NCBI GenBank assembly: GCA_963981005.1
Contig: CAXCCM010000002.1
Span: 1 to 41,855, forward strand
Source of the DNA: an uncultured bacterium
Lineage (GTDB): Bacteria > Cloacimonadota > Cloacimonadia > Cloacimonadales > TCS61
Reading direction: 5' to 3'
DNA length: 41,855 nucleotides
A program made the position numbers and the translations under genes. The notes under the pieces were generated by a model that was given only the letters and a program-made list of their open reading frames with translations, searched no databases and was not told where the DNA came from. Of this stretch, positions 8,237-28,363 are shown piece after piece. Position 1 is the first letter of the stretch. The number at the start of each line of letters is the position of its first letter.

Positions 8237-9337
8237 ATGGCAAAAATAATTTATAGTTTATCAGGCGAAGGATCTGGGCATTCTTCACGTTCAAGGGAGA
8301 TGATAACTCATCTTATAAAGAGAGGGCATACCGTAAAAGTAGCCAGTTATGATAGGGGTTATAAGAACCTAAAAGATGATTTTGATGTTTTGGAAATTGA
8401 AGGATTCTCGATAGTTAGTGAAGATAATAAAGTCTCGATCAGTAAAACTTTTACCCAGAACTTCAATACGATCTTAGATAGATTTGAAGCTTCAAATACA
8501 CTAAAACAAAAGTATTTTAAAGAGTTCCAACCCGACTGCGTTATCACCGATTTTGAACCAATGGCTGCCTATCTGGCTAACGAGTTGGATGTACCGCTAA
8601 TTACAATTGATAACCAGCACCGTATGCGCTATATGGAATTCCCATGCCCCTTTGAGTGGAAAGCAGAGGCACTTTTTATTGAAAACCTCATCCGCGTAAT
8701 GATCCCGCGTCCCTGCGTTTCGCTGGTTACAACCTTCTACTTTGGCGAAAAGAAAAACGAGCGCACATTTACCTTCCCACCAATTTTAAGGCAATCTGTA
8801 ATTAATGCCAAACCGTCAATCGGAGACTATATTCTTGTATATGCAACCCAGGAATATGATTCTCTGATAGAAAATATACAAAATTATAAGAGAGAAAAGT
8901 TCATTATTTATGGCTTCAATGAAGATAAGGTTGAAGAAAATCTTACTTATAAAACCTTCAGCAGAGAGGGTTTTTTACAAGATCTAGCCGGAAGTAAGGC
9001 AGTAATTGCAACTGCCGGATTTACACTTATGACAGAATCTTTTTATCTTGGGAAACCCTATCTGGCACTGCCTATGAAGGGACAGTTTGAGCAAGTATTG
9101 AACGGGTTAATGCTGGATGAACTGGAATACGGCAAAAGCACACATGATCTTAAAAAGGAGAATATCTCAGCCTTCTTGTATGATATTCCGGAATATACAC
9201 AAAACCTTAAAAGTTATAAACATAGAGATAATAGTACGATCACTGAAATGCTAGATATGCTTCTTGAAAATGATCTGAAATTGCTACTTGAATTTCATGA
9301 TAAACGCAGAACAATCTTTCATTTTGATGAAAAATAG
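8237..9337 (+). CDS. GT-B glycosyltransferase (family 28 / MJ1255-like)
   Basis: N-terminal GEGSGHSSRS loop, a C-terminal ATAGFTLMTESFYLGKP motif, and a length of 366 aa. Confidence 0.7.
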   Translation: MAKIIYSLSGEGSGHSSRSREMITHLIKRGHTVKVASYDRGYKNLKDDFDVLEIEGFSIVSEDNKVSISKTFTQNFNTILDRFEASNTLKQKYFKEFQPDCVITDFEPMAAYLANELDVPLITIDNQHRMRYMEFPCPFEWKAEALFIENLIRVMIPRPCVSLVTTFYFGEKKNERTFTFPPILRQSVINAKPSIGDYILVYATQEYDSLIENIQNYKREKFIIYGFNEDKVEENLTYKTFSREGFLQDLAGSKAVIATAGFTLMTESFYLGKPYLALPMKGQFEQVLNGLMLDELEYGKSTHDLKKENISAFLYDIPEYTQNLKSYKHRDNSTITEMLDMLLENDLKLLLEFHDKRRTIFHFDEK

Positions 9338-9407
9338 GAATAAAATTATGAGAAGAAAAGATAGAGAGATCACAGACAAAAAGAATATTCAGAGGATAAT
9401 TTCTAAA
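9191..9407 (+). repeat. Left copy of the ~216-bp direct repeat (intact GT 3' end plus the first ~20 codons of a PNPOx-type gene)
   Basis: It aligns with 35056-35271. By eye there are about 13 mismatches and 1 indel. The core 9238-9312 is identical to 35103-35177. Confidence 0.9.
9348..9407 (+). pseudogene. 5' fragment of a PNPOx-family gene (MRRKDREITDKKNIQRIISK...)
   Basis: It matches the start of the intact gene at 35212 (MRRKDREITDKKKMQMIISK). Homology stops at about 9407 and the frame then runs into unrelated sequence. Confidence 0.8.
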
Positions 9408-9659
9408 ACTAACAAATCCAATAGCCAGGCTCTCATTATATTTTCGTATCATGGGATATAATATTAGTGCAAATCCGATGTATATGGGAAACAAGGTAAA
9501 TTGGAAAAAAGCTCCTGTTAATACTTGATTTTTATTTGCGGAAACTTCTGTAAGATAGTCTGAACTTTCTACAGAAGGAACAACACTAAGAATGCCTGCA
9601 ACCATTCCAATAATAATTAGTATTCCTGCCATGATTGCGGTCTTTCTGTTTGAATCCAT
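9408..9659 (-). pseudogene. Truncated DUF4386-like membrane protein (N-terminal ~82 codons only)
   Basis: MDSNRKTAIMAGILIIIGMVAGILS...LYPMIRKYNESLAIGFV with an AAGGAA RBS. The reading frame then continues into the antisense of the direct repeat. The 151-aa ORF-track call (9240..9695) is therefore a chimera. Confidence 0.6.
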
Positions 9660-9771
9660 TAATATTCCTTTATTAAACTCTAATTTTTTTATCATTGTCT
9701 GTAAGAAACTTTATAGTTTTACTTATCGAATCATTACCTAACCAAAATAAGTGTCCATATTCATTATTCCA

Positions 9772-10497
9772 TTATGTTGATGCCACATTATAAATCACGG
9801 GCATTTGCCCCTTCCACTTATTCCATAAATTTTCTTCCGTGATCAAATTAGCCATGAAGTGAGCAACATTAATTCTACTTGTTTTGCCAGCATCAAATAT
9901 TGGACTTCTTATGGGTGAAGAATGAACTGTATATTCTGAGACTTCAACTTCATTAATTAATGTATCAGGCCTTACCGCAATCCATTCAATAATTTTATTA
10001 CGCATACTTATCGTGTCGAATAAATATTCTATTGCTGATTCATTATCTCGTTGCGGTGGTGATAAAAATCGCATAATCTTCATTACTAAATTCTCTTTTT
10101 TATTGAATTTCTCATTCTGTAATTTATTGATGCACGCTGTAGTGTTCATCAATATTATTTTTATAGTTCTATTTGTACTTATATCATTAACAATACTAAT
10201 AACCCTAATCAATGAATCAGTTACGAGCTTGTAGGGTTTCCCTAATATTCCCTTTATCGAAAGATTATGACCTAGACAGAATATTACGGCATCAACATTA
10301 TTTAAACATTGTTTCAACTCTTTATTATCAATTTCTAATATGCTTGCATTTATTATTTCTAAGCGCTCGCTACTTTTTATAGAATCAAATTTTTCTACAT
10401 TTCTTGTAAATGCTTTAACACTAATACCACGTTTCAATAATTGTGTAACGACGTTAAACCCCGTAGCTCCATTAGCGCCTAATACTAAGACTTTCAT
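9772..10497 (-). CDS. NAD(P)H-binding Rossmann-fold oxidoreductase (NmrA/BVR-B-like), paralog 1
   Basis: MKVLVLGANGATG dinucleotide-binding motif and an AAGGAGA RBS. It shares about 45% identity by eye with 16940..17671, including PDTLINE and GQMPVIYN. Confidence 0.7.
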   Translation of the reverse strand: MKVLVLGANGATGFNVVTQLLKRGISVKAFTRNVEKFDSIKSSERLEIINASILEIDNKELKQCLNNVDAVIFCLGHNLSIKGILGKPYKLVTDSLIRVISIVNDISTNRTIKIILMNTTACINKLQNEKFNKKENLVMKIMRFLSPPQRDNESAIEYLFDTISMRNKIIEWIAVRPDTLINEVEVSEYTVHSSPIRSPIFDAGKTSRINVAHFMANLITEENLWNKWKGQMPVIYNVAST

Positions 10498-10540
10498 ATA
10501 AGCTATCTCCTTCTAATGTTTGTGACATACTGTAGTTGTC

Positions 10541-12178
10541 TTAAATTTTCTTCGCTCTGATTGAATACATATGAGGAATCTTACTTCCATATTTATTAGA
10601 AACCCACCTGCCTTTTTCAATTTCTGTTAGGTTAGGAAAACAATTATAAACTTGATAAGGGAATTCATTAAAAAACTCTATTTTCAATCCATTTGAGATT
10701 AAACTATTTAATACTTCACTTAAACTATGGTGCCACTCAATGTGTTTTAGGTTTTTATTAGAAACCTCAGACTTATCAGTATAAGATTTTTCAATAGCTG
10801 TTTCAAGTGCTTGTGATTTAAAATAACTATCAGATATCTCAGAATTGTTGTTAAGCGTGTAAATGAATGGATGAAATTCCACCATATAAAATATTCCATT
10901 AGGTTTCAAATAACGACTTATAATCTTCGCCCACTTATCAAGATCATTCAACCAATTAATTGCTCCATACGATGTATAAACAATATCAAAAGTCTCATTT
11001 AAAACACTCTCAATATCATATATATTTGAACGCACAAATCTTGCTGAAACTTTCAATTCATTTGATAATTCAGTAGCTTTTTGTATCGAAATATCAGATA
11101 TATCAACTCCCACGACTTCAGCGCCTTGTCTAGCTAATGATAAAGTGTCCATCCCAAAGTGACACTGAAGGTGAAGAAGCCTCTTCCCTTTTATGTCTCC
11201 TAATTCATTAATTTCAATTTGATTTAGCGAAGTTTTTCCTTTCTTAAAACTATCAATATCATAGAAGATAGAGTTTGCGTGTAAAGTTGTTAGTTCATTC
11301 CAGCTCTTCCTATTATGTTCAAAACTATCCATATTGATTTTCTTATTTTTATGCTTTTGTATTTTCAAAAGTTTACTCATATTTTCCCCAAGTATTAAAT
11401 CCTTTTCTTCAGTTGAAATATCAAGATTTCTTATTCTATCAATATTATTCTGCAAGTTGTCTTTCCCATAAGGTGTATCAGTTCCAAATGTAATATTTGC
11501 TGCTCCTACAAATTTTATTGCATCTATAAATCTTTTAGTAGATGTAAGTTGTGATGTTGATGTGTCAAAATAAAGATTACTATCTTTGAAGTTATCTTTT
11601 ATAAATAATTCTAATCCAAATAGATGTGCAATAATTAGTTTCAACTTCGGATGTTCTTTTTTATATTCAATGAGATGTTTTACATCATTATCAGAGTACA
11701 AATGAATAAATAAAGGCAAATCTTTCTTTTCTGCCCACTCGGCAATAGTTCTGAAAAAGTCTGAATCTACAGAATAGTCTTCCCAACACTGATGAAGTTT
11801 TACACCTTTAAAATTCCATTCTGTAAGCTTCTCATTTAAATATTCTGTCGGATTATCTATTTGTTGCGTAATCCAAATAAATTGAATCACTCTTCCATTT
11901 GTTCTCTGTGTTAAATTGTAAACATACTCATTTCCTTTTGGTATTTGCTTAACTGTTCCAGTAATTCTCATTACAAATTTAGTTAATAGGTTTGTAATTT
12001 TAACCACATTTTTTGTTGGAAATAGTTTTGCCAAATTTGGTAAAGAGTAATTTTTCGTACTTTCCAATTCCCCAGGTACAAGTATTACTTTATCTACACC
12101 AGATTTATCCAGATTCTTAATAATACTTTCTGGATTAATATAATCTCCTGCAGCATGTGCATGCCCATCTATAATCAT
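10541..12178 (-). CDS. Fusion protein: metal-dependent amidohydrolase (TIM barrel) plus class I SAM-dependent methyltransferase
   Basis: The N-terminus has MIIDGHAHA ... FGTDTPYG. The C-terminus has LLHLQCHFGMDTLSLARQGAEVVGVDISD (motif I) and FDIVYTSYGAINWL. AAGGAG RBS. Confidence 0.7.
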   Translation of the reverse strand: MIIDGHAHAAGDYINPESIIKNLDKSGVDKVILVPGELESTKNYSLPNLAKLFPTKNVVKITNLLTKFVMRITGTVKQIPKGNEYVYNLTQRTNGRVIQFIWITQQIDNPTEYLNEKLTEWNFKGVKLHQCWEDYSVDSDFFRTIAEWAEKKDLPLFIHLYSDNDVKHLIEYKKEHPKLKLIIAHLFGLELFIKDNFKDSNLYFDTSTSQLTSTKRFIDAIKFVGAANITFGTDTPYGKDNLQNNIDRIRNLDISTEEKDLILGENMSKLLKIQKHKNKKINMDSFEHNRKSWNELTTLHANSIFYDIDSFKKGKTSLNQIEINELGDIKGKRLLHLQCHFGMDTLSLARQGAEVVGVDISDISIQKATELSNELKVSARFVRSNIYDIESVLNETFDIVYTSYGAINWLNDLDKWAKIISRYLKPNGIFYMVEFHPFIYTLNNNSEISDSYFKSQALETAIEKSYTDKSEVSNKNLKHIEWHHSLSEVLNSLISNGLKIEFFNEFPYQVYNCFPNLTEIEKGRWVSNKYGSKIPHMYSIRAKKI

Positions 12179-12232
12179 TATTGCTCCTTTTTGACTTTGA
12201 TACAGTAAATGTTTCTTTTGTTGTTACTTGTT

Positions 12233-13177
12233 TTAATTTGAAATTACCTCTCCTTCATAAACAGTAGAATAGGCATTCCAATTGGGATTACCACCTACAG
12301 TTCCACCAATTACATAAATTTTATTTCCTATACTTACGCAACCGAAAAACACGTTTTTGGCTGGCAAAGAAGTAGTTTCTACCCAGCTGTCTGTTTCAGG
12401 CTTATAAATCAGAACCTTATCGGAACAATCATTTTTTCCATGTATCAAAGTCTGCCCACCCAAGACAAAGAGTTCACCATTCACCACAATAGAAGCCGGT
12501 TTAAAAAGTAGAAGTGGTAGATCGTTTTTTTGTTCCCATCTATCTGATTTCACATTATAAGTCTCGACTGTCCAAACATCACCCCAAACATCTTCCTTAG
12601 TACCTGCACCACCAATTACATAAATCAAAGAATCCATTGTTACAACTGCAGCATTATTCCTTAATGAAGGAATGTCTGCTCTCTCTACCCAGGAATTGGA
12701 TTGGACATTATATGCTTCATGTTTTTTTGTAATACTTTGCCAAGAAGTAAGACCTCCCATAACATAAATTTCATCACCAAAAACACCACAGTCTACGTGT
12801 TGTCTACCTGTCGGCATTGGTTCTAAGATTTTCCAGCTGTCTGTATCGGGGCTATATTCACGATTTGTATTTTGGAACAAATCACCACCTATGGCATAGA
12901 TCTTGCCATTAACAGCTGCTAAAGCCAAGTTGAATGTTGAGTTTGGGATATCTGCTAGTTGAATCCATTCATTCATTTTAGGATTGAATTTGAAAAGAAA
13001 TGGTACTTTTGCTTTGTCAGTTCGCCCTGCGACAAAATATATTTCATTTTCCAGAGTAACTGCATCACCAAGATAATAACCTTCTGGTAATGAGGCTAAT
13101 TCTTTCCATGCTATGGTTTGGGCAAAAGATGAACATATAACAATAAGTATTGCCAATGTAACTATTAATTTTTTCAT
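12233..13177 (-). CDS. Secreted Kelch-repeat beta-propeller protein
   Basis: Signal peptide ending SSFAQ. Repeated (I/L)Y(V/A)(I/M/L)GG blades are present (GKIYAIGG, DEIYVMGG, SLIYVIGG, GELFVLGG, NKIYVIGG). The start overlaps the upstream stop. Confidence 0.8.
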   Translation of the reverse strand: MKKLIVTLAILIVICSSFAQTIAWKELASLPEGYYLGDAVTLENEIYFVAGRTDKAKVPFLFKFNPKMNEWIQLADIPNSTFNLALAAVNGKIYAIGGDLFQNTNREYSPDTDSWKILEPMPTGRQHVDCGVFGDEIYVMGGLTSWQSITKKHEAYNVQSNSWVERADIPSLRNNAAVVTMDSLIYVIGGAGTKEDVWGDVWTVETYNVKSDRWEQKNDLPLLLFKPASIVVNGELFVLGGQTLIHGKNDCSDKVLIYKPETDSWVETTSLPAKNVFFGCVSIGNKIYVIGGTVGGNPNWNAYSTVYEGEVISN

Positions 13178-14352
13178 TTAATCTCCTTTAGATTTTGATC
13201 CATTTTGGCTATCTTGTTAGTCATTTCAACGCAAATACGATCAGTAACTCCAAAATCACACGAATTGGTAGCTACAACATAAGCTCTATCTATTGCAGGT
13301 GCGACCATAACTGCAGCATACCATATCTCATTACTTCCTCCATGTACTAGCACTATTCCTTTTGCCCATGGTTGTTCAGTCTGTTGGAATACCACCCATC
13401 CTGCTGCATAAAAACCAACAGGCTCAATTAACTTATTTAAAATTGTTCTATCAAGAAATGTGTTATCACCGGGTAATTGAAGAGATATAAATTTAGCCCA
13501 ATCTTCTATGCTGCAATGAATACGACCGGCAGGACTTATAGCTTCATTATAATATGCCCTACTGGGCTTCCATCTGTTTCCAATCCATGATTTTTTATGC
13601 CCCCAGGGTTGATCTGTTGAATTATTTTTTAAGGGATCACCGATACCGGCAGTTGTCATTCCAAGTGGTTCAAACAAGCGTTCTTTAATTAAAGTTTCCC
13701 AGCTTAAACCTGTTACTTGTTCTGCCATACAAGCAGCTATAATGTATCCGAAATTAGAATAATACCATTCTCCAACAGTATTTGCCGGAGCAAAAATTAT
13801 ATTATCCTTCAATAAAGAAAGTCGTCTTTCTTTGATCTCTAAATTAGTATGTGCTAACTCGTCTATAGGATTTTTAGGAAGACCTGCTCGATGAGTCAAT
13901 AATTGCCAAAGAGTTATATTTTCAAAACCAGCATGTATGTTATTCTTTAATTCAGGGATGGCTTCAATCAATTTCATATCCCAGCTTAATTTGCCATCCT
14001 CTACAAGAGTTGCAAGCATTGTAGCTGTCATCGCTTTTGCGCATGATCCAATATGAACAAGGTCTTCATCGGTCATAGCCACATTAGTGCCAGCTTTACG
14101 AACTCCCGCTGATCCAATAGCAAGAACACTATCACTAGAAATAATTGCAGCTATCATTCCGGGTGCATTTCCTTCTTTTACAATTTCAGATAGAGCTTTG
14201 CTAATCAGCTCATTTTTGTTAGATTCCAATTTATCTTGAGCGTAACTAGGAATAGTCGTAACTATAGAAGTTGCCATTAATATTACAGGTAGTATTAAAT
14301 ACTGAAACCTGTTTTTGAAGTTGTTTATTTTTAACATAATTATCTGGATCAC
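13174..14352 (-). CDS. Secreted serine hydrolase of the class C beta-lactamase / PBP4*-like fold
   Basis: SxxK (SCAK), YxN (YSN) and an HGG third motif, plus a signal peptide ending SYAQD. The start could instead be the ATG at 14337. Confidence 0.75.
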   Translation of the reverse strand: MIQIIMLKINNFKNRFQYLILPVILMATSIVTTIPSYAQDKLESNKNELISKALSEIVKEGNAPGMIAAIISSDSVLAIGSAGVRKAGTNVAMTDEDLVHIGSCAKAMTATMLATLVEDGKLSWDMKLIEAIPELKNNIHAGFENITLWQLLTHRAGLPKNPIDELAHTNLEIKERRLSLLKDNIIFAPANTVGEWYYSNFGYIIAACMAEQVTGLSWETLIKERLFEPLGMTTAGIGDPLKNNSTDQPWGHKKSWIGNRWKPSRAYYNEAISPAGRIHCSIEDWAKFISLQLPGDNTFLDRTILNKLIEPVGFYAAGWVVFQQTEQPWAKGIVLVHGGSNEIWYAAVMVAPAIDRAYVVATNSCDFGVTDRICVEMTNKIAKMDQNLKEIK

Positions 14353-14373
14353 CTTGGTCTAGACTACCCTTAT

Positions 14374-16884
14374 CTATTTATTAATGATAATATTTTGCAT
14401 TGGTTCTTCAAGAATTGTAACTTCCGGCAGACTGTCTTTCAATATCTCTATTGTCTTTAAAACCTCATTCTCTCCATCTTTATTGAACATAGAGAAATGC
14501 CCTAATATGATATGTTTTGGCTTTAAATAATTTTTTATTATTTCAATCCCCGGGCTATTGTCTCCCCATAAAAACCCACGATTAATAATTGCTAAATCAA
14601 TTGTTGAATTTTTTATTCCTGATAAATCATATTCCATCTCTCCACTCACAAGACTTCCTTCCCAGGCGTTTCCACATGCATCACCACCAATAAATATATT
14701 CATTCCTTCAATTGTAAATAGGAAACCAAGATTTTTGCTAGTACCGTTTCCATCAGCATGTCTTAATCTGAATACTTTTACATCTATTCCGCTAGCTTCT
14801 ATGCTGATAGATCTATATAAATCTGGTAATACTTCTTTTACACGGCATGTATCTGCTTTGTTTTCCAAAGCCATTTTCAATCTCTCTGATGTTTTGTTGT
14901 TGCAAATTACATTTAATTTATCGCTATTTATCATATATTCCGCAACCATATCAGGTGAGAAATGATCACCATGATCATGTGTAATAAGCATAAGATCCGC
15001 AGAGTTAAAAGGTTCTTCATGTTTGTTCATTTTTTTTACAATTTGCTTTGAAGGTGTTAAATATGAATCAAATCCCTGCTCAAAAAGAGCATCAACTATA
15101 ACAGTTTTATTGGCAGATGAGATCATATAACCCATATTAGCTATATATGTAACTTTGATTTCTGCTTTTCCTACTCCATTAAAGTTGATAGATCTTTCTT
15201 TTGATAATTTACCCCCTGTATTTTTAAGGTAATCAAAAATATCTTCATTTCCCCAATCTTGGGCTATGCTCAATGCAGTTCTTCCAGTGTTATCAACTGC
15301 ATTGATATCAGTTTCACGATCTATCAATAATTTTGTTAACTTTTTATAATTATGCATTACCGAATAATGCAATGCTGTTTTATTTAAACTATCAACTGCA
15401 TTAACATCAGCACCTTTTTCTACTAATTTTTTGATAATTGCATAATCACCACCAATTACTGCATTATGCAGGAAACTTCTTCCTATTTTATCTTTATTGT
15501 TAAAATCAGTGCATTCCTTTAATAATGTTTTTGCAACATTTGTTTGACCATTTGATAAAGATATGTGCAGCAATTTGTTTATCTCATGTTTATCATCAGG
15601 AAATTTCGCTCCTTTCTTCAAGATCAAATCTGCTATCTCTTTATTATTACCTTCTATTGCAGTTACCAGAGCAGTTTTCTCATTGTTATCAACTAAGTTT
15701 AAATCGGCTCCAGCATTTATTAAATACTCACTGATATCATTTGAATTGCTTCTCAAAGTTATGTGTAAAGCTGTTTCCATATTATTATTTTGGATATCAA
15801 TATTTGCGCCGTTTTTTACCAATTTTTTTACAAGGGATAAATCTCTATGTCTTAGAGACATTATTAAAGCATCAATTTTTGTTGTAGGATTTTGATAATT
15901 TATATCAGCTTTATTTTCTAATAAAAAATCACTTATCTCATTTTTTCTGTAATATATTGCAAAAATGAGTGGAGTATATCCAGAATTTGTCGAATCAACA
16001 AGACCGGGATTTTCTTTAACTAGATCTTTTACTTCTGCAATATTTCCATCCCTGATTAAAGTAAATATTGTCTGTGGTTGTTGTATCTCTTCTACATCTT
16101 CAAATATAAATTCAATTCCTCTGTAGACATCAGTATATGGAACATGTCCTTCGCCTTCTAATTCTTCCATTTTCCACTTTAGGCCTTTTGGTGCGTTGTT
16201 TTCTAAAAGTTTTCGTAGTGAAGGCATAGTCGTAATCACAGAATTATAATCCTTTTCACCATAAACAATATATACTTTTTTGTTAAGATTTTCTATGGCC
16301 TTAAATAATTCAGTAGTTTGATTTAAGACATAATTATTTTCATAACCCAGCATTGGGCTACTCAATATGTAGGATGAAAACAGATCAGGATCAGTATTTA
16401 GAATATAGGTTGCAAACATTCCAGTATTAGAAAATCCAGCAACAATTCTTTGAGAATCTGTTTTATATTCTTTCTCTATATAAGGAATTATTTCTTTCTT
16501 TATAGATTTCAGAAATTTTTTACCCACAGCTTTATTTTCAGGATTTCTGGTAATTTTAAAAGGGAAAACTTCTCCTCTACTTCCATCATCACAAATTCCT
16601 ACAATAATCATTTCCGGAATTCCGTTACTCCCGCCCAAATCTCTGGCAGCAGAATATACGCGTTCAAAAGAGAATTGAGGATAAAGTACATAAAGCACAG
16701 GATATGTTTTTAACGTATCATACACATCGGGTAAACTAATCATTAGTTCTCTTTCATTACCATAAACTTCCGAATCAAAGGAAATTCTTTTTCCTATTGA
16801 TATATCCTTGTTTGTTTGAGCTTGTAATTGTGCAAAGCTAAAATAGAATAATCCTACTAATACTAAAAATAGCGTTCTTTTCAT
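14374..16884 (-). CDS. Secreted tri-domain protein: alpha/beta esterase, ankyrin repeats and an MBL-fold hydrolase
   Basis: Signal peptide ending LQAQ. The esterase part has YPVLYVL..GFSNTG (GxSxG). There are at least 6 ankyrin repeats (GYTPLIFAI.., ETALHITL.., KTALVTAI.., RSFLHNAV.., KTALHYSV.., RTALSIA). The C-terminus has ITHDHGDHF (HxHxDH). Confidence 0.8.
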   Translation of the reverse strand: MKRTLFLVLVGLFYFSFAQLQAQTNKDISIGKRISFDSEVYGNERELMISLPDVYDTLKTYPVLYVLYPQFSFERVYSAARDLGGSNGIPEMIIVGICDDGSRGEVFPFKITRNPENKAVGKKFLKSIKKEIIPYIEKEYKTDSQRIVAGFSNTGMFATYILNTDPDLFSSYILSSPMLGYENNYVLNQTTELFKAIENLNKKVYIVYGEKDYNSVITTMPSLRKLLENNAPKGLKWKMEELEGEGHVPYTDVYRGIEFIFEDVEEIQQPQTIFTLIRDGNIAEVKDLVKENPGLVDSTNSGYTPLIFAIYYRKNEISDFLLENKADINYQNPTTKIDALIMSLRHRDLSLVKKLVKNGANIDIQNNNMETALHITLRSNSNDISEYLINAGADLNLVDNNEKTALVTAIEGNNKEIADLILKKGAKFPDDKHEINKLLHISLSNGQTNVAKTLLKECTDFNNKDKIGRSFLHNAVIGGDYAIIKKLVEKGADVNAVDSLNKTALHYSVMHNYKKLTKLLIDRETDINAVDNTGRTALSIAQDWGNEDIFDYLKNTGGKLSKERSINFNGVGKAEIKVTYIANMGYMISSANKTVIVDALFEQGFDSYLTPSKQIVKKMNKHEEPFNSADLMLITHDHGDHFSPDMVAEYMINSDKLNVICNNKTSERLKMALENKADTCRVKEVLPDLYRSISIEASGIDVKVFRLRHADGNGTSKNLGFLFTIEGMNIFIGGDACGNAWEGSLVSGEMEYDLSGIKNSTIDLAIINRGFLWGDNSPGIEIIKNYLKPKHIILGHFSMFNKDGENEVLKTIEILKDSLPEVTILEEPMQNIIINK

Positions 16885-16939
16885 TTTAATTCCTTTCGTT
16901 TTTTGTTTTAATTACATAAACATTTAAGTAGAAACCTAA

Positions 16940-17671
16940 CTAATCTTCATTATTGTAGATCACCGGCATTTGACCTTGCCACTTCTTCCATAAATCTGGT
17001 TCCATTAGAAGCCTGGCCATGAAATTACCTACATTTATTCTACTTGTTCTACCTGGGTCAAATACAGCGCTCCTTATGGGTGAACGGTATATCTGATATT
17101 CTGTTACGATATCTTCATTTATTAAAGTGTCTGGTCGAATAGACACCCATTCAATGAATTTATTATTCTGTCCGATTCTCAATCTTAAATAATCTGCAGC
17201 AGCTTCATTATCACGGTGAGGTGGAAGAAGCAGATGGATTAAGCTAAACACGATTTTTTGCCCCAACGATGTTAGCTCAGCAAGATCTTTGTTACGCACA
17301 GCTGTAGTATTCATCAAAACAAATTTAACCGGTTTTTGGGAAGAACCTGTTTCGATAGCTTCACATAACAATCTAACCGAGTCAGTCACCAGTTTTCTGG
17401 GATTGCCGAACATGCCTTTAAAGGTAAGGTTATGACCCAGGCAAGAGGCAACTGAATTACAATCAATCAAAAAGCTCTGGATTTCCTCTAAAGTAAGCTC
17501 AGAAATTGAAGCTTTAATCACAGTTACTTTCTTATTAGTCTGCCATTTATCAGCTACTTCACTGGTGGGACGGATAACCACTTTTACGTCTTGCCCCATC
17601 TTTAGCAGCTGCTCTACCAACTGCTTTCCTGTAACGCCACTGGCACCTAATACTAATGTTTTCATACTCAT
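16940..17671 (-). CDS. NAD(P)H-binding Rossmann-fold oxidoreductase, paralog 2
   Basis: LVLGASGVTG motif. It is collinear with 9772..10497 along its whole length. Confidence 0.7.
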   Translation of the reverse strand: MSMKTLVLGASGVTGKQLVEQLLKMGQDVKVVIRPTSEVADKWQTNKKVTVIKASISELTLEEIQSFLIDCNSVASCLGHNLTFKGMFGNPRKLVTDSVRLLCEAIETGSSQKPVKFVLMNTTAVRNKDLAELTSLGQKIVFSLIHLLLPPHRDNEAAADYLRLRIGQNNKFIEWVSIRPDTLINEDIVTEYQIYRSPIRSAVFDPGRTSRINVGNFMARLLMEPDLWKKWQGQMPVIYNNED

Positions 17672-17689
17672 ATTTACATTTCTCTTATA

Positions 17690-18625
17690 TTATTTTAAAC
17701 TTTCAGGTTTTCGTAACTTTCTAATTATATCAGTAGAAACCCAGAAGAAATCCTGTCCTGGTGTATGTCTCATAAAGAACATGTATTTCCCATCAGGAGA
17801 GACTGTAGGAAAGCGCTCTCTCAAATCGGTATTAACTTTATCTCCCATATTGATTGGATACCCCCATTTATCATCGTCAGTTTTAAAACTAATATACAAA
17901 TCAACATCACCAAATCCACCCTCATGCATCGCTGCAAAAATTACATATTCTTCCTTTGGAGACATATAGAAATTCCATACCGGACGAAATTCCTTATGTA
18001 TGATAACACTATCTGCAAAAGTGAAATTATTATTATTATATGTGTATTTAGAAATCTTGCCGAAAAGGTTCTTATAGACAATTCCTTTGTTGGAGAATAT
18101 TGGGTTATAATCCTTATCTTCGGTATTATATGGTTGTCCAACATCTACTGGTTTATCACTCCATTTGCCATCTATCTTTTCAATGTAATAGGTGTTCATG
18201 TCGGATGAAACCCAGGGACTTCTAACCTGGTAAAAGAATAATTTATTTCCATCTGGGGAGAATACAGGTCCGCCATTGAGTCCGTGCGGATTATTTTTTA
18301 TGAACGCGGCCAACTGGGGCTTAGACCAGATACCATTTTCAAATTTAGAATAAAATATCTGTTCAGTATTTTTGGATCCATCTTCTGATTTGTACTTTCC
18401 GGTCCAGGCTGACCAGTAAATCTCATCTCCTTGGGGAGAAATAGCAACCTGGCAGTGTTCTGCCCAAGTGGAATCTGATACAATACCGGGAGCAAAAACT
18501 TCAGGAATTAGCCCGGGTGGTGTAAGCCCAAAATAGGCATCTTTTGTTTCTATAAAATTCTTTTCTGTTTGAGTACAACTTACAAAGCTTAGTATTGCAA
18601 GCATTAACAATAATAGTTTTTTCAT
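17690..18625 (-). CDS. PD40/TolB-like beta-propeller lipoprotein
   Basis: Lipobox LSFVSC. Repeated SP(D/Q)G motifs are present (AISPQGDEIYWS, VFSPDGNKLFF, TVSPDGKYMFF). AAGGAAG RBS. Confidence 0.7.
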   Translation of the reverse strand: MKKLLLLMLAILSFVSCTQTEKNFIETKDAYFGLTPPGLIPEVFAPGIVSDSTWAEHCQVAISPQGDEIYWSAWTGKYKSEDGSKNTEQIFYSKFENGIWSKPQLAAFIKNNPHGLNGGPVFSPDGNKLFFYQVRSPWVSSDMNTYYIEKIDGKWSDKPVDVGQPYNTEDKDYNPIFSNKGIVYKNLFGKISKYTYNNNNFTFADSVIIHKEFRPVWNFYMSPKEEYVIFAAMHEGGFGDVDLYISFKTDDDKWGYPINMGDKVNTDLRERFPTVSPDGKYMFFMRHTPGQDFFWVSTDIIRKLRKPESLK

Positions 18626-18639
18626 TTTTCAATCTTCCT

Positions 18640-19602
18640 TTAAATTTTTCGATTAACAATAGGTTTTTGCTCAACTTCTAAATCACAAATGTATGGATCG
18701 TGACTAGGGTAAAACAAGTGTGTTTTTGACAGGATGTCCACCCTTCCTCTGCCGGTTTTGTTGTTATTTAGTACTTCAATATTATACACAATTTCATGTG
18801 ATCTTATCAAACCATAACCTTCCACAATTCTACCAAATGTTTTAAAAGTTGGATCAACAGGGATCCATCCATAATTCTCTAAATAAAACTCCCCCCATGC
18901 ATGACGATAGGCAAAAACATGGCGTGCGGGAATATTCTTACATCTTAATAGGGACAATAAAACAGTTGATAGACCTCCACAATCTCCACCCTCATTTTTT
19001 AAAATTTCCAACGTTGTTTTTCCGTATCCGGATGTACTTTTAAACGTGAGGTTGTCATTAACATAGTCAAAACATTTTTTAGCATAAGCATATACATCAG
19101 TTGCATCTATCCAGAGTTCATCACTGATCTTTTTTATAGTCGCATTTTCGATATCAATAATATCATAGTACTGTTTTGTATAGCGTTTGTAAATATCGGA
19201 AGTTGTATCGTATTCATAAATTCTATCTATATTTGCTGAAACATATTCTGTGTTTGAGGGTACATAGTCAAACTCAATCATCACTTCACCCCAATCACCT
19301 TCAGCCGGTTGTTGCTCAGGTGAAATAGTAAAGCGAACATAATTATCCGGAGAGTCTGGATTATCAAGTATCTCTCCGCTGTGTGTATCGATATTGGATA
19401 TCAGCTGATAATCATTATTACGTGGAAGCGGACAATAGATGAATTGTAAATTTTCTCCTGCCTTTACCTTCTTAAACTTTATTTTATGAGTATAACGATA
19501 AACCTGATCATCTATCGAATTATCAGTTGTTTCAGCGGTTAAACTATATGTCAGAAATACAAGAAAAAGTATGTTCAATAAATGTATTTTAAACTTTTTC
19601 AT
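18640..19602 (-). CDS. Secreted transglutaminase-like (papain-fold) protein
   Basis: Signal peptide, plus a Cys-His-Asp core: GGDCGGLS ... HAWGEFY ... GWIPVDPT. Confidence 0.75.
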   Translation of the reverse strand: MKKFKIHLLNILFLVFLTYSLTAETTDNSIDDQVYRYTHKIKFKKVKAGENLQFIYCPLPRNNDYQLISNIDTHSGEILDNPDSPDNYVRFTISPEQQPAEGDWGEVMIEFDYVPSNTEYVSANIDRIYEYDTTSDIYKRYTKQYYDIIDIENATIKKISDELWIDATDVYAYAKKCFDYVNDNLTFKSTSGYGKTTLEILKNEGGDCGGLSTVLLSLLRCKNIPARHVFAYRHAWGEFYLENYGWIPVDPTFKTFGRIVEGYGLIRSHEIVYNIEVLNNNKTGRGRVDILSKTHLFYPSHDPYICDLEVEQKPIVNRKI

Positions 19603-19604
19603 AT

Positions 19605-21398
19605 TTATTCCTCTAATTTAACGCATTTAGATTCTCTTCCACCTTGGGTTAATGTCATACTTTCTACTTTTCCATCATTCTTTAAATTAAATGTAAATTG
19701 AGCTTCGAATATTTTTGGATAAAAAACATTTTCAGATTCAGAAAAAATTTCAAACTGATCTTGACCAGTTGCCTGAGCTTTCATTTGCTTACCTTCTTTC
19801 GTAACAGTAATAATAAACCCTTCTCGTAGTTCATATTTACCCACATAACTTTCCAAAATGGCATTATCAACAGGCTTATCTATAACTAATCGTCCAACCA
19901 TAGCGTATGTTGGAGGTTCCATAAACGCGTTTCTAGTTGTAGGAAAACCTGTCATTCCTGATTCTGCACGTTGACCAGATTCTGAAACAAAACTGATATT
20001 TCCCGATTTGTCAGGGTAAATATTAAATAGGAAACATGAACCTAAGTAGGTTGAATAAAGGAGTTTACTATTTTTAATGTCGATTACAGAAACAAAAGAT
20101 TTTTTGCGTGCAAAAAAACCTGAGTTAAAGGTCTTCTCTCCGACTGGATAATCTGAATACAAAGCGTTCTCGGTAAGCGGAAAATCGGCAGAACTTGTTG
20201 TTCCTCCAATAACAATAGTATCATTATTAAGAAAATTTACTGACATGACTTTATCGGCTTCACTTCCTCCAAATAATGTTGAGTATTCTAATGTCATATC
20301 ATCAGAATTAAATACAGATATGAAGCAATCCTGTTTACCCTTACCTTTTTTGCTAATAGCATTATCAGTTACTGGGAAATTTTCTTCCTTAGTGCTGCCT
20401 GAGACTATCAATCTGTTTGGTTTTGTCCATTTTAAATTTGAGCTCTGATATCCATCGGCTGCGAAATAGCTTAAATATGAAATTTTGTTGTCTGCTGCGT
20501 TTATTTTGGCAATAAAATGATCCATTCTGGCTCTATTTTCAGGTTTGATGAATTCTTTGCGAATAGCATTATCAGTTACTGGTAAGTCTGCTGTAAGAGT
20601 ACCGCCTGTAATATATATATTATCTTTGTCATCAACATCAAGCCCAAGAATCATTTCCATTTGGCTACTTCCAAAGAATGTGGAGAATAAAAGCTTTTCT
20701 CCATCTGGATTAAATTTAGAGACGAAACCATGGTGCTTTTTACTTGTAGAGTCAATGACACCTTTTGTTAGAGGAAAGTCATGAGAAAGGGTAACTCCCA
20801 CAAGAATAATATTACCTTTAGAATCAATTTTAATGCATCCCCCGCTTACAGTTTCTTCAACTTCACCTCCAAGAAATGTAGAAAATATGATATCAGTTCC
20901 AGTTGGATTCATTTTAGTTAAGAAAACATCGCCAGCCCATTGTCCTTCACCATTAAAACTAGTATCATACACTCCTTCAGTTACAGGAAAATCTGATGAT
21001 TCTGTACCTCCTGCTAAATAAATAAATCCTTGTTCATCCACTGTTATAGCTGTATGATGTTCTCTTTTTGTACCACCAATTAATGTTGCAAAAACTATTT
21101 CCCCTTTGGGTGTAAATTTTGCTACAAAGACATCGGCCAAATCCTCACCCTTTAATTCAGTTTGATACGCTCCTTCAGTAGCTGGAAAATTCTTATCTTT
21201 AGTATTTCCTGAAATATAAGTATACCCTTCGTTATCGGTATAAATATCAAAACCTGATGCAAATCTATCAGTATGCGAAAGATAAGTAGAAAAACCAAGC
21301 TTATATGCTAAGCTATCTGCAAATTCTATTGTTTGCGAGTTTAGAATTCCTAGATTAAAAAGAATTCCTAATAAGATGAAACTAATTTTTTTTAACAT
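19605..21398 (-). CDS. Secreted SBBP-repeat beta-propeller protein with a C-terminal DUF3471-like domain
   Basis: Signal peptide. At least 6 repeats of G(G/N/S)T...(D/N)FP(V/L/A)T(E/D/K)(G/N)A type are present. The tail YVGKYELREGFIITVTKEGKQMKAQ...FTFNLKNDGKVESMTL resembles the domain usually appended to beta-lactamase-fold enzymes. AAGGAG RBS. Confidence 0.7.
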   Translation of the reverse strand: MLKKISFILLGILFNLGILNSQTIEFADSLAYKLGFSTYLSHTDRFASGFDIYTDNEGYTYISGNTKDKNFPATEGAYQTELKGEDLADVFVAKFTPKGEIVFATLIGGTKREHHTAITVDEQGFIYLAGGTESSDFPVTEGVYDTSFNGEGQWAGDVFLTKMNPTGTDIIFSTFLGGEVEETVSGGCIKIDSKGNIILVGVTLSHDFPLTKGVIDSTSKKHHGFVSKFNPDGEKLLFSTFFGSSQMEMILGLDVDDKDNIYITGGTLTADLPVTDNAIRKEFIKPENRARMDHFIAKINAADNKISYLSYFAADGYQSSNLKWTKPNRLIVSGSTKEENFPVTDNAISKKGKGKQDCFISVFNSDDMTLEYSTLFGGSEADKVMSVNFLNNDTIVIGGTTSSADFPLTENALYSDYPVGEKTFNSGFFARKKSFVSVIDIKNSKLLYSTYLGSCFLFNIYPDKSGNISFVSESGQRAESGMTGFPTTRNAFMEPPTYAMVGRLVIDKPVDNAILESYVGKYELREGFIITVTKEGKQMKAQATGQDQFEIFSESENVFYPKIFEAQFTFNLKNDGKVESMTLTQGGRESKCVKLEE

Positions 21399-21432
21399 AA
21401 TAATCTCCTTTATAATATCTATTTTTTAGTAC

Positions 21433-21448
21433 TGCATATTCTATGCCA
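21433..21448 (-). promoter_or_regulatory. Sigma-54 (-24/-12) promoter P1 for the nine-gene cluster
   Basis: The minus strand reads TGGCATAGAATATGCA, with GG and GC at the consensus TGGCAC-N5-TTGCW spacing. It ends 35 nt upstream of the ATG at 21398. Confidence 0.7.
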
Positions 21449-21511: not shown

Positions 21512-21548
21512 TGTTCATCAACGTTCAATTTTTGTTCTCTTGTGAACA
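21512..21548. promoter_or_regulatory. Paired candidate enhancer (UAS) sites upstream of P1
   Basis: TGTTCatcaacGTTCA (21512-21527) and the perfect palindrome TGTTCtcttgtGAACA (21533-21548). The starts are 21 bp apart, and the pair lies 64-100 bp upstream of the -24 element. Confidence 0.5.
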
Positions 21549-21589: not shown

Positions 21590-21958
21590 CTAACAAATAA
21601 CTGATCGATTATTATCTAATAGTTCTAAAAGCATTGGCATTGACACTGGCTTCACTAGATAATCGAGATACTTAGTTTTTTGCAACCTTTTAGTATATTG
21701 TGAAATCGGATCTGAGCTATGAAAAATTATATGAGTTTTATGCAATTCCTGAATCAAACATGCAATTTCGATCCCATCAATATCTCCCAAAACATTTATA
21801 TCCATCAAAAAAAAATCTGGTTTAAACTCTTCAGCTGCTTTAAGTGCACTTTTATAATCACATGCTATTGAACAGACATCATGACCATTTTCTTCTAATA
21901 AAAACTTGATATCTTGCGCGATCAATACTTCATCTTCTACAATACAAATAGTATTCAA
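21590..21958 (-). CDS. Stand-alone response-regulator receiver (CheY-like)
   Basis: IVEDE, FFLMDINV (phospho-acceptor Asp) and a conserved VKP lysine region. As sequenced it has only a TTG start, 2 nt after a G7 run; see findings. Confidence 0.75.
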   Translation of the reverse strand: MNTICIVEDEVLIAQDIKFLLEENGHDVCSIACDYKSALKAAEEFKPDFFLMDINVLGDIDGIEIACLIQELHKTHIIFHSSDPISQYTKRLQKTKYLDYLVKPVSMPMLLELLDNNRSVIC

Positions 21959-22088
21959 ATCCCCCCCATAATCACAGAGATAGAGTTTGCATTATACCCC
22001 ATCTCTGCTAAAAAATATTCTTTGTACTCAATTCAAGATCCTTGGAATAATCTTCCAGATTGGAAGAGGTTTTCCATGATTGTATTAT

Positions 22089-25000
22089 TTATTTCATTAG
22101 GATCATTTTCTTCGTTGAAACATACTTGTCGGCTTTCATCTTGTAGAAATAAACGCCACTTGAAACTTTTTTGTTAGTATAGTCAGTTCCATTCCAGGTT
22201 ACAATGTGATCCCCTGATTCATTCACGTCATTTACGAGGGTCTTCACGAGCTGGCCGCGTAGATTGTAAATTTCCAAAGTCACGTTTCCAGTTTCTTTGA
22301 CTGAATAAGCAATATTGGTTTCAGGATTGAAAGGATTGGGATAATTTCCAGCAAGCTCTGTTATAGCAATGATATTATTACCGGCATTAGTTCCCATATA
22401 TGTGAATTCAATGGTAACTATATCAGATTCACCATCATCATAAATTGCTTGTACACCAGCAGTATATGTTTGATTGTAAACCAAATTTTCTAATAACCAT
22501 TCTGTATCGGTTGTATTACCTTCAAAGCTGGTATCCAAAAATACATTGTAGCTTTCCAGTTCTCGGCTGGAATTTACATTGTGATCTAGTGCATTAACAA
22601 ATACTTTTTCACGTTGAGTTGTAGTATGTGCACCTACTTCTTTTAGAGGAGTAGGAGAAAGTTCCGCAACAGTTCCATCGCCATACTGAACAACTGCACG
22701 AATGAGATAAGCTTCAGACCAAGATGTCCAACCTCCACCATTATTATGATCCCAAGATCTTCCATTATTCAAATTTGTATTACAGCTCATATAAGTATCT
22801 TCATCGATTGAACCAAAGGCAACAACGAAATCATTATCAACCATTAGGTTTTCATCAGATACATCTATTATTACCCAGTCATCAAAAAGAGCATAAGCTA
22901 ATTCAGTGTGTAATAGATCTTCTGTAGGAGCCCCTGCATCCCAGCCCCATACTTCAGCATTGAACTCTGTACCTGAAGAGGTGTGTATTTTCAGTTCCAG
23001 AATTTGGCAGGCTTCACTAGGACTCATTTGAGTTCCCATACTAAAACCAACATAGCTGTATTGGCCGTTACTTACACCATTATCGTAGATTAGTTCCTCA
23101 ATATCACCGCCGCCACCAACTGGTGCATCCCAAGTGAAAAGTCCATCTTCATCAACTGCTAAGTTTGTTGGTGGATCAAGAGTTGTGGCTGGATTATAAG
23201 TGAAATCTACTTCTACGCACTCAGATATACCGTCATCATAAACTGCTTCTACGCCAGCAGTGTAAGTCTGACCGCTAGTAAGATCAGAGAACATCCATTC
23301 TATATCGATAGTATTACTAACCATTTCACCATCAAGATAAACATTGTAACTTTCCAATTCTCGGCTGGAATTTACATTGTGATCTAGTGCACCAACTTTT
23401 TTTACAGGAGTTGAAGAGAGTTCGGCAACAGTGCCTGGTGCATCCCAGGTGAAAAGGCCATCTTCATCAACTGCCAGGTTGGTAGGTGGATCAAGAGTTG
23501 GTATTACTACATCTGTCAGCATCACATCATCAATATACCAGTAGTTAATGCCGTAAGAATCACCATTCAGATAGAAGCACATTTGGAATGTAGCTGATCC
23601 AACATCTGCATTAGTTATGGTTACGTTAACTGTTTCAGGTCCAACAGCACCAGCTGGAATAATCGACCATGCATCATTCCAGGTTGTACCATCGCTGCTC
23701 GTAGCTACACCCAGTGTGTATCCACCTGAATAGTCATCAACACAGTGCTTGAATTCTACAGCTATTTCTGTCATCTCTGATGTATCCAGAACCATTGTGC
23801 ACATTCTTGATATATCATTAAATGGGGGTGTCCAACTGAACATCATCTCAGTTCCAGTACCGCCTGCATGGTTTCCTGCAGAGGATCCCCAGTTTGTTTG
23901 CCCCACTCCATCGATATACCAGCCGGCTGGTGGAACACCACCACCGAAATCTTCTAAGATCAGAATACCCTCTGCACCAATAAAAGCTAAATTGGAAGTG
24001 GCTTCTCCACCATCACCAATTAAATTATAGGGAACAACTGTGTAGCAATATGTTCCAGCTAAAGGAATTGTATTATCTATATAAGATGTATTTAGCCCGG
24101 TTACTTCAAATAAAACACCGTCATTTCTTTCGATGTGATAACCACCAATAACATTGTTAAAAGAACCGCCATGCAATCCGGTTGTGGGATTATCCCAAGT
24201 AAGTGTTCCTGATAAAATACCGGGAGATGTTTGCGTTAAAATAAGATTATTAACCGCAGCCGGAGCATCTTCTCCAACCCAAATAGTACTCTCAACCGTG
24301 ATCCCCTCACCAGCATCATTGAAGCCAACAACACCATAGGTATAAATTCCGGCCGTTAGCATACTAGAATCTACGTGAGAACCTGTGCCACCGATAACAG
24401 GAGCTGTATCTGTGTAGATGAGTGTTCCATCTCTGTAGACTCTCATCTCATCGAGATCCGCAAGAGTGTTTCCGCCAATTGTTGTTGTTGGACAAGTCCA
24501 GCCGATATCAGCTTGGAAAATACCATTAGCACCCGGGGTAACAGTTACATCTGTAGGAGCGGCAGGTGAATTAAGAGTTTCAGCTGACAAATTTATATCT
24601 AAAGTGGTTATCTCTTCAGATAAGATCTCCACATCAGGGATTGTTAGAGTATTATAACCATCCATTGTACATATCACATCATAAATCCCAGCCATTTTAT
24701 CAAAGCTGTACGACCCATCAGCAGCAGTTTCCGCAAAAGTAAAATACCCGTCTGTTATGATCGCACCTTCAATAGCATCACCTGTATCAGCATCTGTAAC
24801 CGTTCCTGCTACAGAACCGAAATCACATTCCTGATAGCAGCATAATCCACCCTCATATGTACCTATCCAGAGTCTGGATTCAGCATCAAGCTCCAGACTC
24901 AATATATTATCTGTGGGTAGTCCGGAGTTTGTACTATTGTAGGAATACCAATCATTACCATCATATTTTGCCAATCCTGCTTCAGTTCCTACCCAGACAT

Positions 25001-28347: not shown

Positions 28348-28363
28348 TATTATCTCCTTATTT

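Follow-up and report, generated by a model that had tools for sequence, protein, structure and literature searches.

A sigma-54-headed gene cluster of an uncultured Cloacimonadota bacterium and a putative two-subunit hydrolase at its core

We analyzed a 41,855-nucleotide (nt) stretch of DNA from an uncultured bacterium of the phylum Cloacimonadota (contig CAXCCM010000002.1 of assembly GCA_963981005.1; the whole stretch is hereafter called the window), in which nine open reading frames (ORFs) lie on the minus strand between positions 9772 and 21398. The original prediction, made from the sequence alone, had described these genes as a sigma-54-driven cluster that pairs secreted repeat scaffolds with hydrolase folds and matches no known pathway. 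Our preferred reading, to which we assign a probability of about one half, is that the cluster forms a sigma-54-dependent operon under the probable control of a two-component system and represents an enlarged version of a widespread operon family, at whose core an SBBP beta-propeller protein with a DUF3471 tail (gene 1) would supply in trans the lid of an S12 serine hydrolase (gene 6). The cluster appears to be a lineage-specific elaboration of this family, and the operon family, the SBBP-DUF3471 protein family, and the lid in trans all appear to be undescribed. Our literature search found no paper naming DUF3471 or the gene 1 family and nothing relevant for SBBP or for sigma-54 with MacB in Bacteroidetes, and a Cloacimonadota genome paper (PMC8542988) does not mention these genes. 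Likewise, none of the nine products reached the cut-off of an NCBIfam equivalog, in agreement with the claim that no recognized pathway is encoded here. The parts all come from known superfamilies, and we regard the finding as a lead rather than a surprise.

Gene 1 (19605–21398, minus strand), the conserved first gene of the operon family, encodes a secreted protein of 597 amino acids (aa). All Pfam calls for the nine genes were above the gathering scores, and they reproduced the domain assignments of the original prediction throughout. In gene 1, the SBBP propeller (PF06739) scored 41.2 bits against a cut-off of 20.5, and the C-terminal DUF3471 domain (PF11954), covering residues 509–584, scored 51 bits against 29.3. 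The protein family is large and strongly conserved, such that its best 120 hits were full-length (~607 aa) and 61–98% identical across many phyla; clustering at 50% reduced it to two representatives, one of 607 aa with the tail and one of 515 aa without it. Identity with the Leptospira LipL53-type SBBP lipoprotein (NF047494) was rejected at 42 bits against 400. An AlphaFold2 model of the whole protein (predicted local distance difference test score, pLDDT, of 82.7) showed an all-beta propeller followed by a C-terminal beta domain. Its best fold match was the SBBP propeller of the Friedel-Crafts alkylating enzyme CylK (7FH6, 7RON; E 1e-16, template-modeling score, TM, ~0.5), but the two proteins share only 17–18% identity, and the likeness is one of fold only. 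CylK is not known to carry a DUF3471 tail.

The tail was also modeled alone, giving one helix and eight strands with a pLDDT of 88.9. All eight of its best fold matches in the PDB were S12/penicillin-binding-protein-fold enzymes (IS11, D-aminopeptidase, Ulm16, SurE, and Lip3). In sequence searches of solved structures, no meaningful match came from the whole protein or from a profile of the tail. As modeled, the tail is a lipocalin-like barrel similar to the lid at the C-terminus of IS11, D-aminopeptidase, SurE, and Ulm16. We take the D-aminopeptidase structure (1EI5) to carry its lipocalin domain at the C-terminus. The lipocalin domain of IS11 forms a lid over the catalytic cleft (PMC9972953), that of Pab87 is part of the active-site chamber (PMC2651629), and the C-terminal lipocalin domain of Ulm16 is essential for catalysis (PMC11601455); a C-terminal lipocalin domain is also described in the SurE paper. 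In Lip3, the beta-rich C-terminal regions, which its paper does not term lipocalin, are extra domains that form a substrate cavity (PMC12903863).

Gene 6 (13174–14352, minus strand) encodes a secreted S12 beta-lactamase-fold serine hydrolase (PF00144, 145 bits against a cut-off of 27), whose probable start, the ATG at 14337, yields 387 aa, the length found in database gene calls. Its catalytic motifs are intact; S103-C-A-K, Y198-S-N, and the H-G-G of VLVHGGSNE were read from the sequence and correspond to the SxxK, YxN, and HxG motifs of the Pab87 'CubicO' peptidase (2QMI), the IS11 esterase (7SPN), the O. anthropi D-aminopeptidase (1EI5), and the PBP-type thioesterases SurE (6KSU) and Ulm16 (8FEK), which were among the best sequence matches. 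The nearest solved relatives by sequence were Pab87, alkaline D-peptidase, ClbP, Flp, R61, IS11, Lip3, and SurE. The S12 fold is also shared with ClbP, BogQ-type resistance peptidases, and Lip3/Lip7, D-stereospecific and DL-peptidases that act on nonribosomal peptides; the matches to ClbP and Lip3 were distant (E 1e-12 to 1e-16), and gene 6 has neither the membrane helices of ClbP nor the C-terminal domain of Lip3. Assignments to class C beta-lactamase, AmpH, and PBP4B were rejected, since the respective NCBIfam scores were 60 against a cut-off of 415, 74 against 266, and 33 against 385. The family of gene 6 is tight as well (58–99% identity, ~385 aa, many phyla). None of its best 120 relatives carried DUF3471, all having PF00144 only, and at 387–392 aa gene 6 itself has no lipocalin-like barrel after the S12 domain. 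The lipocalin-bearing S12 enzymes share their catalytic motifs with gene 6 and their one-helix, eight-stranded barrel with the tail of gene 1. The difference is that here the barrel stands on a separate exported polypeptide, behind an SBBP propeller of ~500 residues, and is encoded upstream of the hydrolase with which it would assemble.

A genome scan with gene 1 gave 66 loci, whose ORFs were called and clustered. When homologues of 590 aa or more were counted as tailed and loci with enough flanking sequence were compared, an S12 hydrolase was the next gene for 21 of the 28 tailed homologues and for 2 of the 17 tail-less ones (Fisher p = 4.6e-5, a value that overstates the evidence because the loci are not phylogenetically independent). 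An S12 hydrolase was found anywhere downstream on the same strand for 24/28 and 4/17, respectively. That the SBBP-DUF3471 protein acts with the beta-lactamase-fold enzyme, which had been offered as a hint, became the best-supported point of the original prediction: adjacency across phyla tracks the tail, whose fold is like that of the lipocalin lid borne in cis by related enzymes. Because the two genes are linked across phyla, the fold of the tail is that of the lid of related enzymes, and gene 6 has no such domain, we propose that gene 1 lends a lid to gene 6 in trans; on gene linkage and modeled folds, the gene 1 tail and gene 6 seem to form a two-subunit periplasmic hydrolase.

Besides the non-independence of the loci, several observations weigh against this reading. 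In the window, genes 1 and 6 are separated by 5.2 kb with four genes between them, and in Tenebribacter by 3.1 kb. No fused SBBP-DUF3471-hydrolase protein was present among the best 150 representatives (1.84 billion searched), and a comparison of how far genes 1 and 6 have diverged in each locus gave a weak, non-significant correlation (rho 0.36, p 0.057). The hydrolase beside the SBBP gene of Lentimicrobium sp. L6 is another S12 enzyme, which shares 25% identity with gene 6 and carries the beginning of a DUF3471 of its own. The fold matches of the tail are weak (E 5e-3 to 0.1; query-normalized TM 0.58–0.66), though the hits are consistent. The complex itself is putative, being drawn from gene linkage and likeness of fold, and any substrate is assigned from distant homology only, with gene 6 far under every NCBIfam cut-off. 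Furthermore, the taxonomy of the loci was taken from metagenome-assembled genomes (MAGs) and may be partly wrong.

The 66 loci were labeled as Bacteroidales, Cloacimonadota, Aminicenantes, Zixibacteria, Chrysiogenales, Delongbacteria, Gemmatimonadales, and others, and several of them lie on contigs of 0.1 to 4.8 Mb. Their recurrent order is a regulator, the SBBP gene with or without DUF3471, an S12 hydrolase of the gene 6 family (38 loci), and then a variable secreted set. This set comprises PD40 proteins (17 loci), pieces of an esterase/ankyrin/metallo-beta-lactamase (MBL) protein (15 loci), another alpha/beta hydrolase (13 loci), MBL alone (12 loci), and Kelch proteins (12 loci), together with S41, WD40, and FG-GAP proteins. 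A Pfam census of what lies downstream of SBBP in 35 loci, covering 126 ORFs other than beta-lactamases, ranked PD40 first (17), followed by MBL (12), methyltransferases (9), ankyrin (7), S41 (6), and Kelch (5). MacB homologues stood near gene 1 relatives in 14 loci. In 15 loci, the SBBP gene is directly preceded on the same strand by the gene for a LytTR response regulator, accompanied by a LytS-type kinase, and in 8 loci by one for a TPR-HisKA-REC-AraC hybrid; some loci have an NtrC/kinase pair on the opposite strand.

The pairing of scaffolds with hydrolases therefore extends beyond this genome, as PD40, Kelch, ankyrin, MBL, PF00756, and S12 domains recur downstream of SBBP in other phyla and are often fused with one another. 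The fusions seen in relatives are esterase-PD40, MBL-PD40 with or without Tricorn_N, ankyrin-MBL, and esterase-ankyrin. A similar combination of propeller and hydrolase is known from the prolyl oligopeptidase (S9) family and tricorn protease. Unlike those enzymes, the proteins described here have S12, PF00756, and MBL catalytic folds and an SBBP-type propeller, are encoded as separate proteins, and contain no S9 domain. The arrangement in the 8 loci with a hybrid kinase also resembles Bacteroidota polysaccharide utilization loci, in which a hybrid kinase-REC-AraC protein is likewise encoded directly upstream of secreted degradative enzymes. In contrast to those loci, the unit here is without SusC/SusD and glycoside hydrolases, and the sensor is a TPR protein rather than a periplasmic propeller. 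A polysaccharide utilization locus was rejected on the grounds that no SusC/SusD-like domain occurred in the window ORFs or among the 25 commonest downstream families of the 35 loci.

Tail-less SBBP homologues of ~512 aa in four loci labeled as Aminicenantes or Chrysiogenales (L041, L056, L057, and L063) lie in a different conserved context, which consists of an ABC ATPase, a 542-aa membrane protein, SBBP, ankyrin-MBL, a small methyltransferase whose N-terminus resembles a signal peptide, and a protein similar to amino-acid permeases. This context looks like a second, related operon type.

The cluster is headed by a -24/-12 (sigma-54) promoter, P1 (TGGCATAGAATATGCA; 21433–21448, minus strand), which lies in the intergenic region 34 nt ahead of the ATG of gene 1 and has the canonical spacing of the -24 GG and -12 GC elements. 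The strict pattern matched three times across the window, compared with 0.14 matches expected. The palindrome TGTTCTCTTGTGAACA is located at 21533–21548, 100 nt upstream of the -24 element of P1, and is a candidate site for a sigma-54 activator; exact copies of TGTTC-N6-GAACA occurred twice in the window (0.07 expected), each upstream of a sigma-54 promoter. The second such promoter (32586–32601, plus strand) stands ahead of a gene for a MacB/FtsX-type permease (32620–35043, plus strand), with its palindrome copy at 32367–32382. This permease consists of two MacB_PCD + FtsX repeats, and its gene is divergent from a pair of genes encoding a TPR kinase and an NtrC-type activator. Because the MacB-type gene has its own -24/-12 promoter and shares the palindrome with the cluster, it probably belongs to the same regulon. 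The third match (39276–39291, plus strand) is intragenic and probably due to chance; it falls after the signal peptide of ORF 39133–41853, a calcineurin-like phosphoesterase with a C-terminal domain of the type IX secretion system (T9SS).

P1 was kept ahead of the gene 1 orthologues in L011, L012, L030, and L073, and in L011 (Ca. Tenebribacter davisii) and L012 (another Cloacimonadota MAG) the same palindrome preceded the -24 element by ~102 nt. Across ~1 Mb of related loci, there were 12 hits to the strict motif, 11 of which had a downstream ORF; the targets included four gene 1 homologues, three MacB homologues, one MBL protein, and one PD40 protein. The promoter is not general for gene 1 homologues, since it was found for 3 of 58 in a first scan and was restricted to Cloacimonadota-like and some Bacteroidales loci. 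Within the cluster, a relaxed search returned P1 and one poor match inside gene 6, and nothing else. One further strict match, at ~11468 on the minus strand of the Aminicenantes-labeled locus L060, precedes an ORF that by eye resembles a BlaR1/M56-type signal-transducing peptidase, which hints at a link to sensing in some relatives.

The candidate regulator of P1 is an NtrC-type sigma-54 activator with REC, AAA+, and Fis-type helix-turn-helix domains (28979–30412, minus strand; Pfam Sigma54_activat, 205 bits). Its gene is overlapped by that of a TPR histidine kinase (30409–32124, minus strand; TPR, HisKA, and HATPase_c), which is the candidate sensor; no hydrophobic segment was seen in its translation, and it appears to be cytoplasmic. 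Four same-strand genes (21590–28762, minus strand) separate the activator from the cluster, namely two receiver-only response regulators and two large T9SS-cargo proteins of 1228 and 849 aa, with Reg_prop, CarboxypepD_reg, and fn3 domains in one of the two. With P1 and the upstream palindrome conserved in orthologous loci, and with an NtrC-type activator and kinase encoded upstream on the same strand, the sigma-54 control put forward in the original prediction is well supported as a prediction. In these features, which were read from the sequence, the system resembles NtrC-family sigma-54 regulons with their -24 GG/-12 GC elements, a palindrome ~100 nt upstream, and an activator and kinase nearby; it differs from them in that other phyla place the same operon under LytS-LytTR or under a TPR hybrid kinase-AraC protein. 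That the same structural operon is wired to three types of sensor, one of them a sigma-54 circuit that also takes in a MacB-type permease, points to an envelope function that is specific and induced by a signal.

As for the mechanism, the lipocalin-like tail of exported gene 1 would dock onto the gene 6 hydrolase, thereby supplying in trans the lid that IS11, D-aminopeptidase, SurE, Ulm16, and Pab87 carry in cis, and docking would tether a propeller that selects or presents the substrate. The remaining secreted genes may follow the same principle of a hydrolase joined with a repeat domain, whereas the transglutaminase-like gene and the three cytoplasmic genes would be add-ons from elsewhere. 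The whole could constitute an envelope system that is co-induced with a MacB-type exporter. With low confidence, we suggest that this inducible system cleaves exogenous peptide or ester compounds containing D-amino acids, such as peptide or lipopeptide antibiotics. This role is favored because the S12 relatives are D-stereospecific peptidases or esterases, the MacB permease shares the promoter and palindrome, MacB lies near gene 1 relatives in 14 loci, and importers are absent from the 25 commonest downstream families. The envelope-located processing or detoxification suggested in the original prediction is likewise plausible. A more far-reaching version, which we consider speculative and doubtful as a whole, holds that the pair is a new two-subunit periplasmic hydrolase at the core of a horizontally spreading, sensor-controlled toolkit that neutralizes exogenous nonribosomal peptide, lipopeptide, or ester compounds together with MacB-type exporters. 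If true, many phyla of anaerobic sediment bacteria would commonly have an inducible resistance system that has so far gone unrecognized.

S12 enzymes are studied as D-peptidases, as antibiotic-resistance peptidases, and as peptide cyclases. If the two proteins assemble, such enzymes could gain substrate-selecting modules non-covalently, which would bear on enzyme discovery and engineering, and DUF3471 is offered a testable function as a detachable lipocalin lid for S12 hydrolases. An envelope function of this kind would concern poorly understood anaerobes of the Cloacimonadota, Aminicenantes, Zixibacteria, and Bacteroidales.

A serious rival to this role, although on balance an unlikely one, is nutrient scavenging. 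Here, an inducible extracytoplasmic toolkit would degrade detrital peptides and cell-wall debris, including D-amino-acid peptides, in anoxic sediments, and the propellers would gate the hydrolases as in tricorn and prolyl oligopeptidase. The closest solved relatives of gene 6 fit this idea, as they include alkaline D-peptidase and the D-stereospecific Pab87, a proposed processor of environmental D-peptides (PMC2651629). So do the S41, M1, and M28 peptidases and PDZ domains that recur in related loci, the MBL-PD40-Tricorn_N fusions of relatives, and the hosts, which are fermentative heterotrophs with secreted peptidases (PMC8542988). However, no uptake transporter (TonB-dependent, SusCD-like, or peptide-uptake) was found among the 25 commonest Pfam families of the 126 downstream ORFs or among the ORF domains of the window around the cluster, whereas peptide importers are present in the neighborhood of Pab87 (PMC2651629). 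The transporter with which the cluster has its promoter type and palindrome in common is instead a MacB/FtsX-type permease.

The layout of the nine genes bears on whether they form one unit at all. An ORF check returned the start and stop positions that had been claimed, and the gaps from gene 1 to gene 9 are 2, 14, 18, 55, 21, -4, 54, and 43 nt, in agreement with the tight packing described in the original prediction. A terminator-like hairpin was sought on the minus strand of the cluster interior and none was found, as had been stated before. AGGAG-type Shine-Dalgarno sequences precede most of the genes (e.g., at 21399–21415). On these gaps and the lack of a minus-strand terminator, the nine genes could be read as one transcript. 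By eye, six N-termini have features of a signal peptide or lipobox and three do not, which matches the division into six exported and three cytoplasmic products. The T9SS C-terminal sorting domain (Por_Secre_tail) was absent by Pfam from all nine products, and thus from the six exported ones for which its absence had been claimed; two large neighbors at 22089–28386 carry one.

Between and behind the pair, all on the minus strand, lie seven further genes. Gene 2 (18640–19602) encodes a secreted transglutaminase-like protein of 320 aa (Transglut_core PF01841, 63.8 bits against a cut-off of 23); candidate Cys (GDCGG), His (RHAWGE), and Asp (PVDPT) residues of a predicted triad were read from its sequence, and a sequence search gave no PDB relative. 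Its homologue stood near a gene 1 relative in 1 of the 66 loci (L050), and gene 2 is a lineage-specific addition. Gene 3 (17690–18625) encodes a PD40 beta-propeller lipoprotein of 311 aa, with an N-terminus ending in LSFVSC; its homologues were found near gene 1 relatives in 17 loci. Gene 5 (14374–16884) encodes a secreted protein of 836 aa that joins a PF00756 esterase, ankyrin repeats, and MBL. The esterase domain (59.7 bits against 22) was closest to IroE-like 3gff and BES 2qm0 (E ~1e-14), with G-F-S-N-T rather than GxSxG as the likely nucleophile elbow, and the MBL domain (Lactamase_B_2, 42.4 bits against 27) has HDHGDH at residue 636. The three-domain form is rare, and partial or split forms occur elsewhere. 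In P0015–P0020, L008 (11024–12703), and L009 (800–3328), esterase or MBL domains of the gene 5 type are joined to PD40/Tricorn_N and not to ankyrin. Because PD40/Tricorn_N replaces ankyrin there, the repeat partner of these hydrolase domains seems interchangeable. Gene 7 (12233–13177), whose start overlaps gene 6 by 4 nt, encodes a secreted Kelch beta-propeller of 314 aa; homologues with 63–71% identity occur in L011, L034, L035, and L062, and its ORF cluster (cluster 10) spans 12 loci. Genes 3, 5, and 7 are a recurrent accessory set of the family. TolB, NanM, and a Legionella ankyrin effector were rejected as identities of cluster products, as their scores were far under the curated NCBIfam cut-offs.

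The cytoplasmic products are encoded by genes 4, 8, and 9. Genes 4 (16940–17671, 243 aa) and 9 (9772–10497, 241 aa) both encode NAD(P)H-binding proteins of the NAD_binding_10 family, and at 48% identity they are indeed paralogues. A gene 4 homologue adjoins the esterase-ankyrin-MBL gene in L006 and another is present in L009; NAD_binding_10 proteins occurred near gene 1 relatives in 2 of the 66 loci. Gene 8 (10541–12178, 545 aa) encodes an amidohydrolase (TatD/Amidohydro_2) fused to an S-adenosylmethionine-dependent methyltransferase. As a full fusion, it recurred only in the close relative L078, and L079 and L080 match residues 201–545 up to a contig edge. In other metagenome contigs, its halves are separate genes outside the cluster, the methyltransferase half standing alone, and the amidohydrolase half has a paralogue in a separate module made up of DUF4386, amidohydrolase, alpha/beta hydrolase, epimerase, and DUF4386 genes. 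Gene 8 is a lineage-specific fusion that belongs with this variable DUF4386-containing module. Methyltransferases near the pair elsewhere were rejected as gene 8 orthologues, being generic class I relatives only (22–30% identity).

The full nine-gene order was found in same-species contigs only, which encode an identical gene 5 protein. Among named organisms, those nearest to the window are Cloacimonadota, with a 99% match named Ca. Cloacimonetes bacterium and 84% identity to Ca. Tenebribacter davisii, which places the window in this phylum and not in Bacteroidota. Elsewhere, genes 1 and 6 stay together, and genes 3, 5, and 7 are more loosely associated. An 83%-identical relative has PD40, NAD_binding_10, esterase-ankyrin-MBL, SBBP-DUF3471, and beta-lactamase genes, followed by MacB. 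Larger clusters, in which the same secreted families are mixed with S41, WD40, FG-GAP, and others, are present in Lentimicrobium sp. L6 and in a relative with 48% identity. In both assemblies of Lentimicrobium sp. L6 (L143/L144 and L145/L146), SBBP-DUF3471 follows a TPR hybrid kinase and the different S12 hydrolase is next, at the contig end; the gene 6 orthologue (73% identical) lies after a methyltransferase 940 nt from the start of another contig, and both assemblies break at the same place. The nine genes are therefore not one conserved functional unit, and the suggestion of a single unit was not upheld: the order is confined to the species, the transglutaminase-like gene recurs in one of 66 loci and NAD_binding_10 in two others, and the halves of gene 8 are unlinked elsewhere. 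What stood from the proposed neighborhood check is the linkage of genes 1 and 6 across phyla, with 3, 5, and 7 looser.

These results are also what would be expected if, beyond the gene 1-gene 6 pair, the cluster were a loose assemblage of co-directional but unrelated accessory genes in a variable region, with a promoter that may serve the first gene or genes only. Elsewhere, genes 2, 4, 8, and 9 are seldom if ever found close to gene 1 relatives and the halves of gene 8, which is fused only locally, occur alone; a strain-level breakpoint lies at the 3' end, and downstream content and order vary with every lineage. We consider this explanation improbable, since the gaps are -4 to 55 nt with no terminator-like hairpin on the coding strand, P1 is the single sigma-54-like site ahead of a gene on that strand, and PD40, MBL, ankyrin, Kelch, esterase, and S41 domains are found again downstream of the pair in unrelated phyla, repeatedly in fusion with one another. 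Remodeling of the cell's own wall, in which gene 6 would be an AmpH-like DD-peptidase and the module, with a TolB-like PD40 protein, would remodel or recycle peptidoglycan or envelope under stress, is very unlikely: AmpH is the top NCBIfam match of gene 6 with PBP4B also listed, the gene 3 product has partial matches to propellers in OmpA-like envelope proteins and in TolB, and LytS-LytTR pairs precede the pair in 15 loci, a control that would resemble murein-hydrolase regulation, but the AmpH score of 74 bits and the TolB score of 21 fall far below their cut-offs (266 and 343), no role in wall turnover is known for the accompanying esterase, MBL, and ankyrin domains, and the patchy spread across phyla at 60–87% identity suggests an accessory, transferable trait, not core envelope maintenance.

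At its 3' end, the preferred sigma-54-dependent operon borders on a region that differs among strains. A truncated ORF for a DUF4386 membrane protein (9240–9695, minus strand) follows gene 9 on the same strand and is overlapped by a convergent glycosyltransferase gene (8237–9337). The L003 contig is 99.94% identical to window positions 9402–21227 and then diverges, with the breakpoint at ~9402. Beyond the breakpoint, L003 (11533–16597) has intact DUF4386, amidohydrolase, alpha/beta hydrolase, NAD-epimerase, and second DUF4386 genes, by which the run is extended by five genes. Because the DUF4386-containing module directly follows gene 9 in L003 but not in the window, the 3' end of the cluster is a variable join of two modules. 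Further downstream in this variable region (5962–7237, plus strand), a DUF6088/AbiEii pair looks like a type IV toxin-antitoxin or abortive-infection module, and its AbiEii gene is absent from one strain variant (L005).

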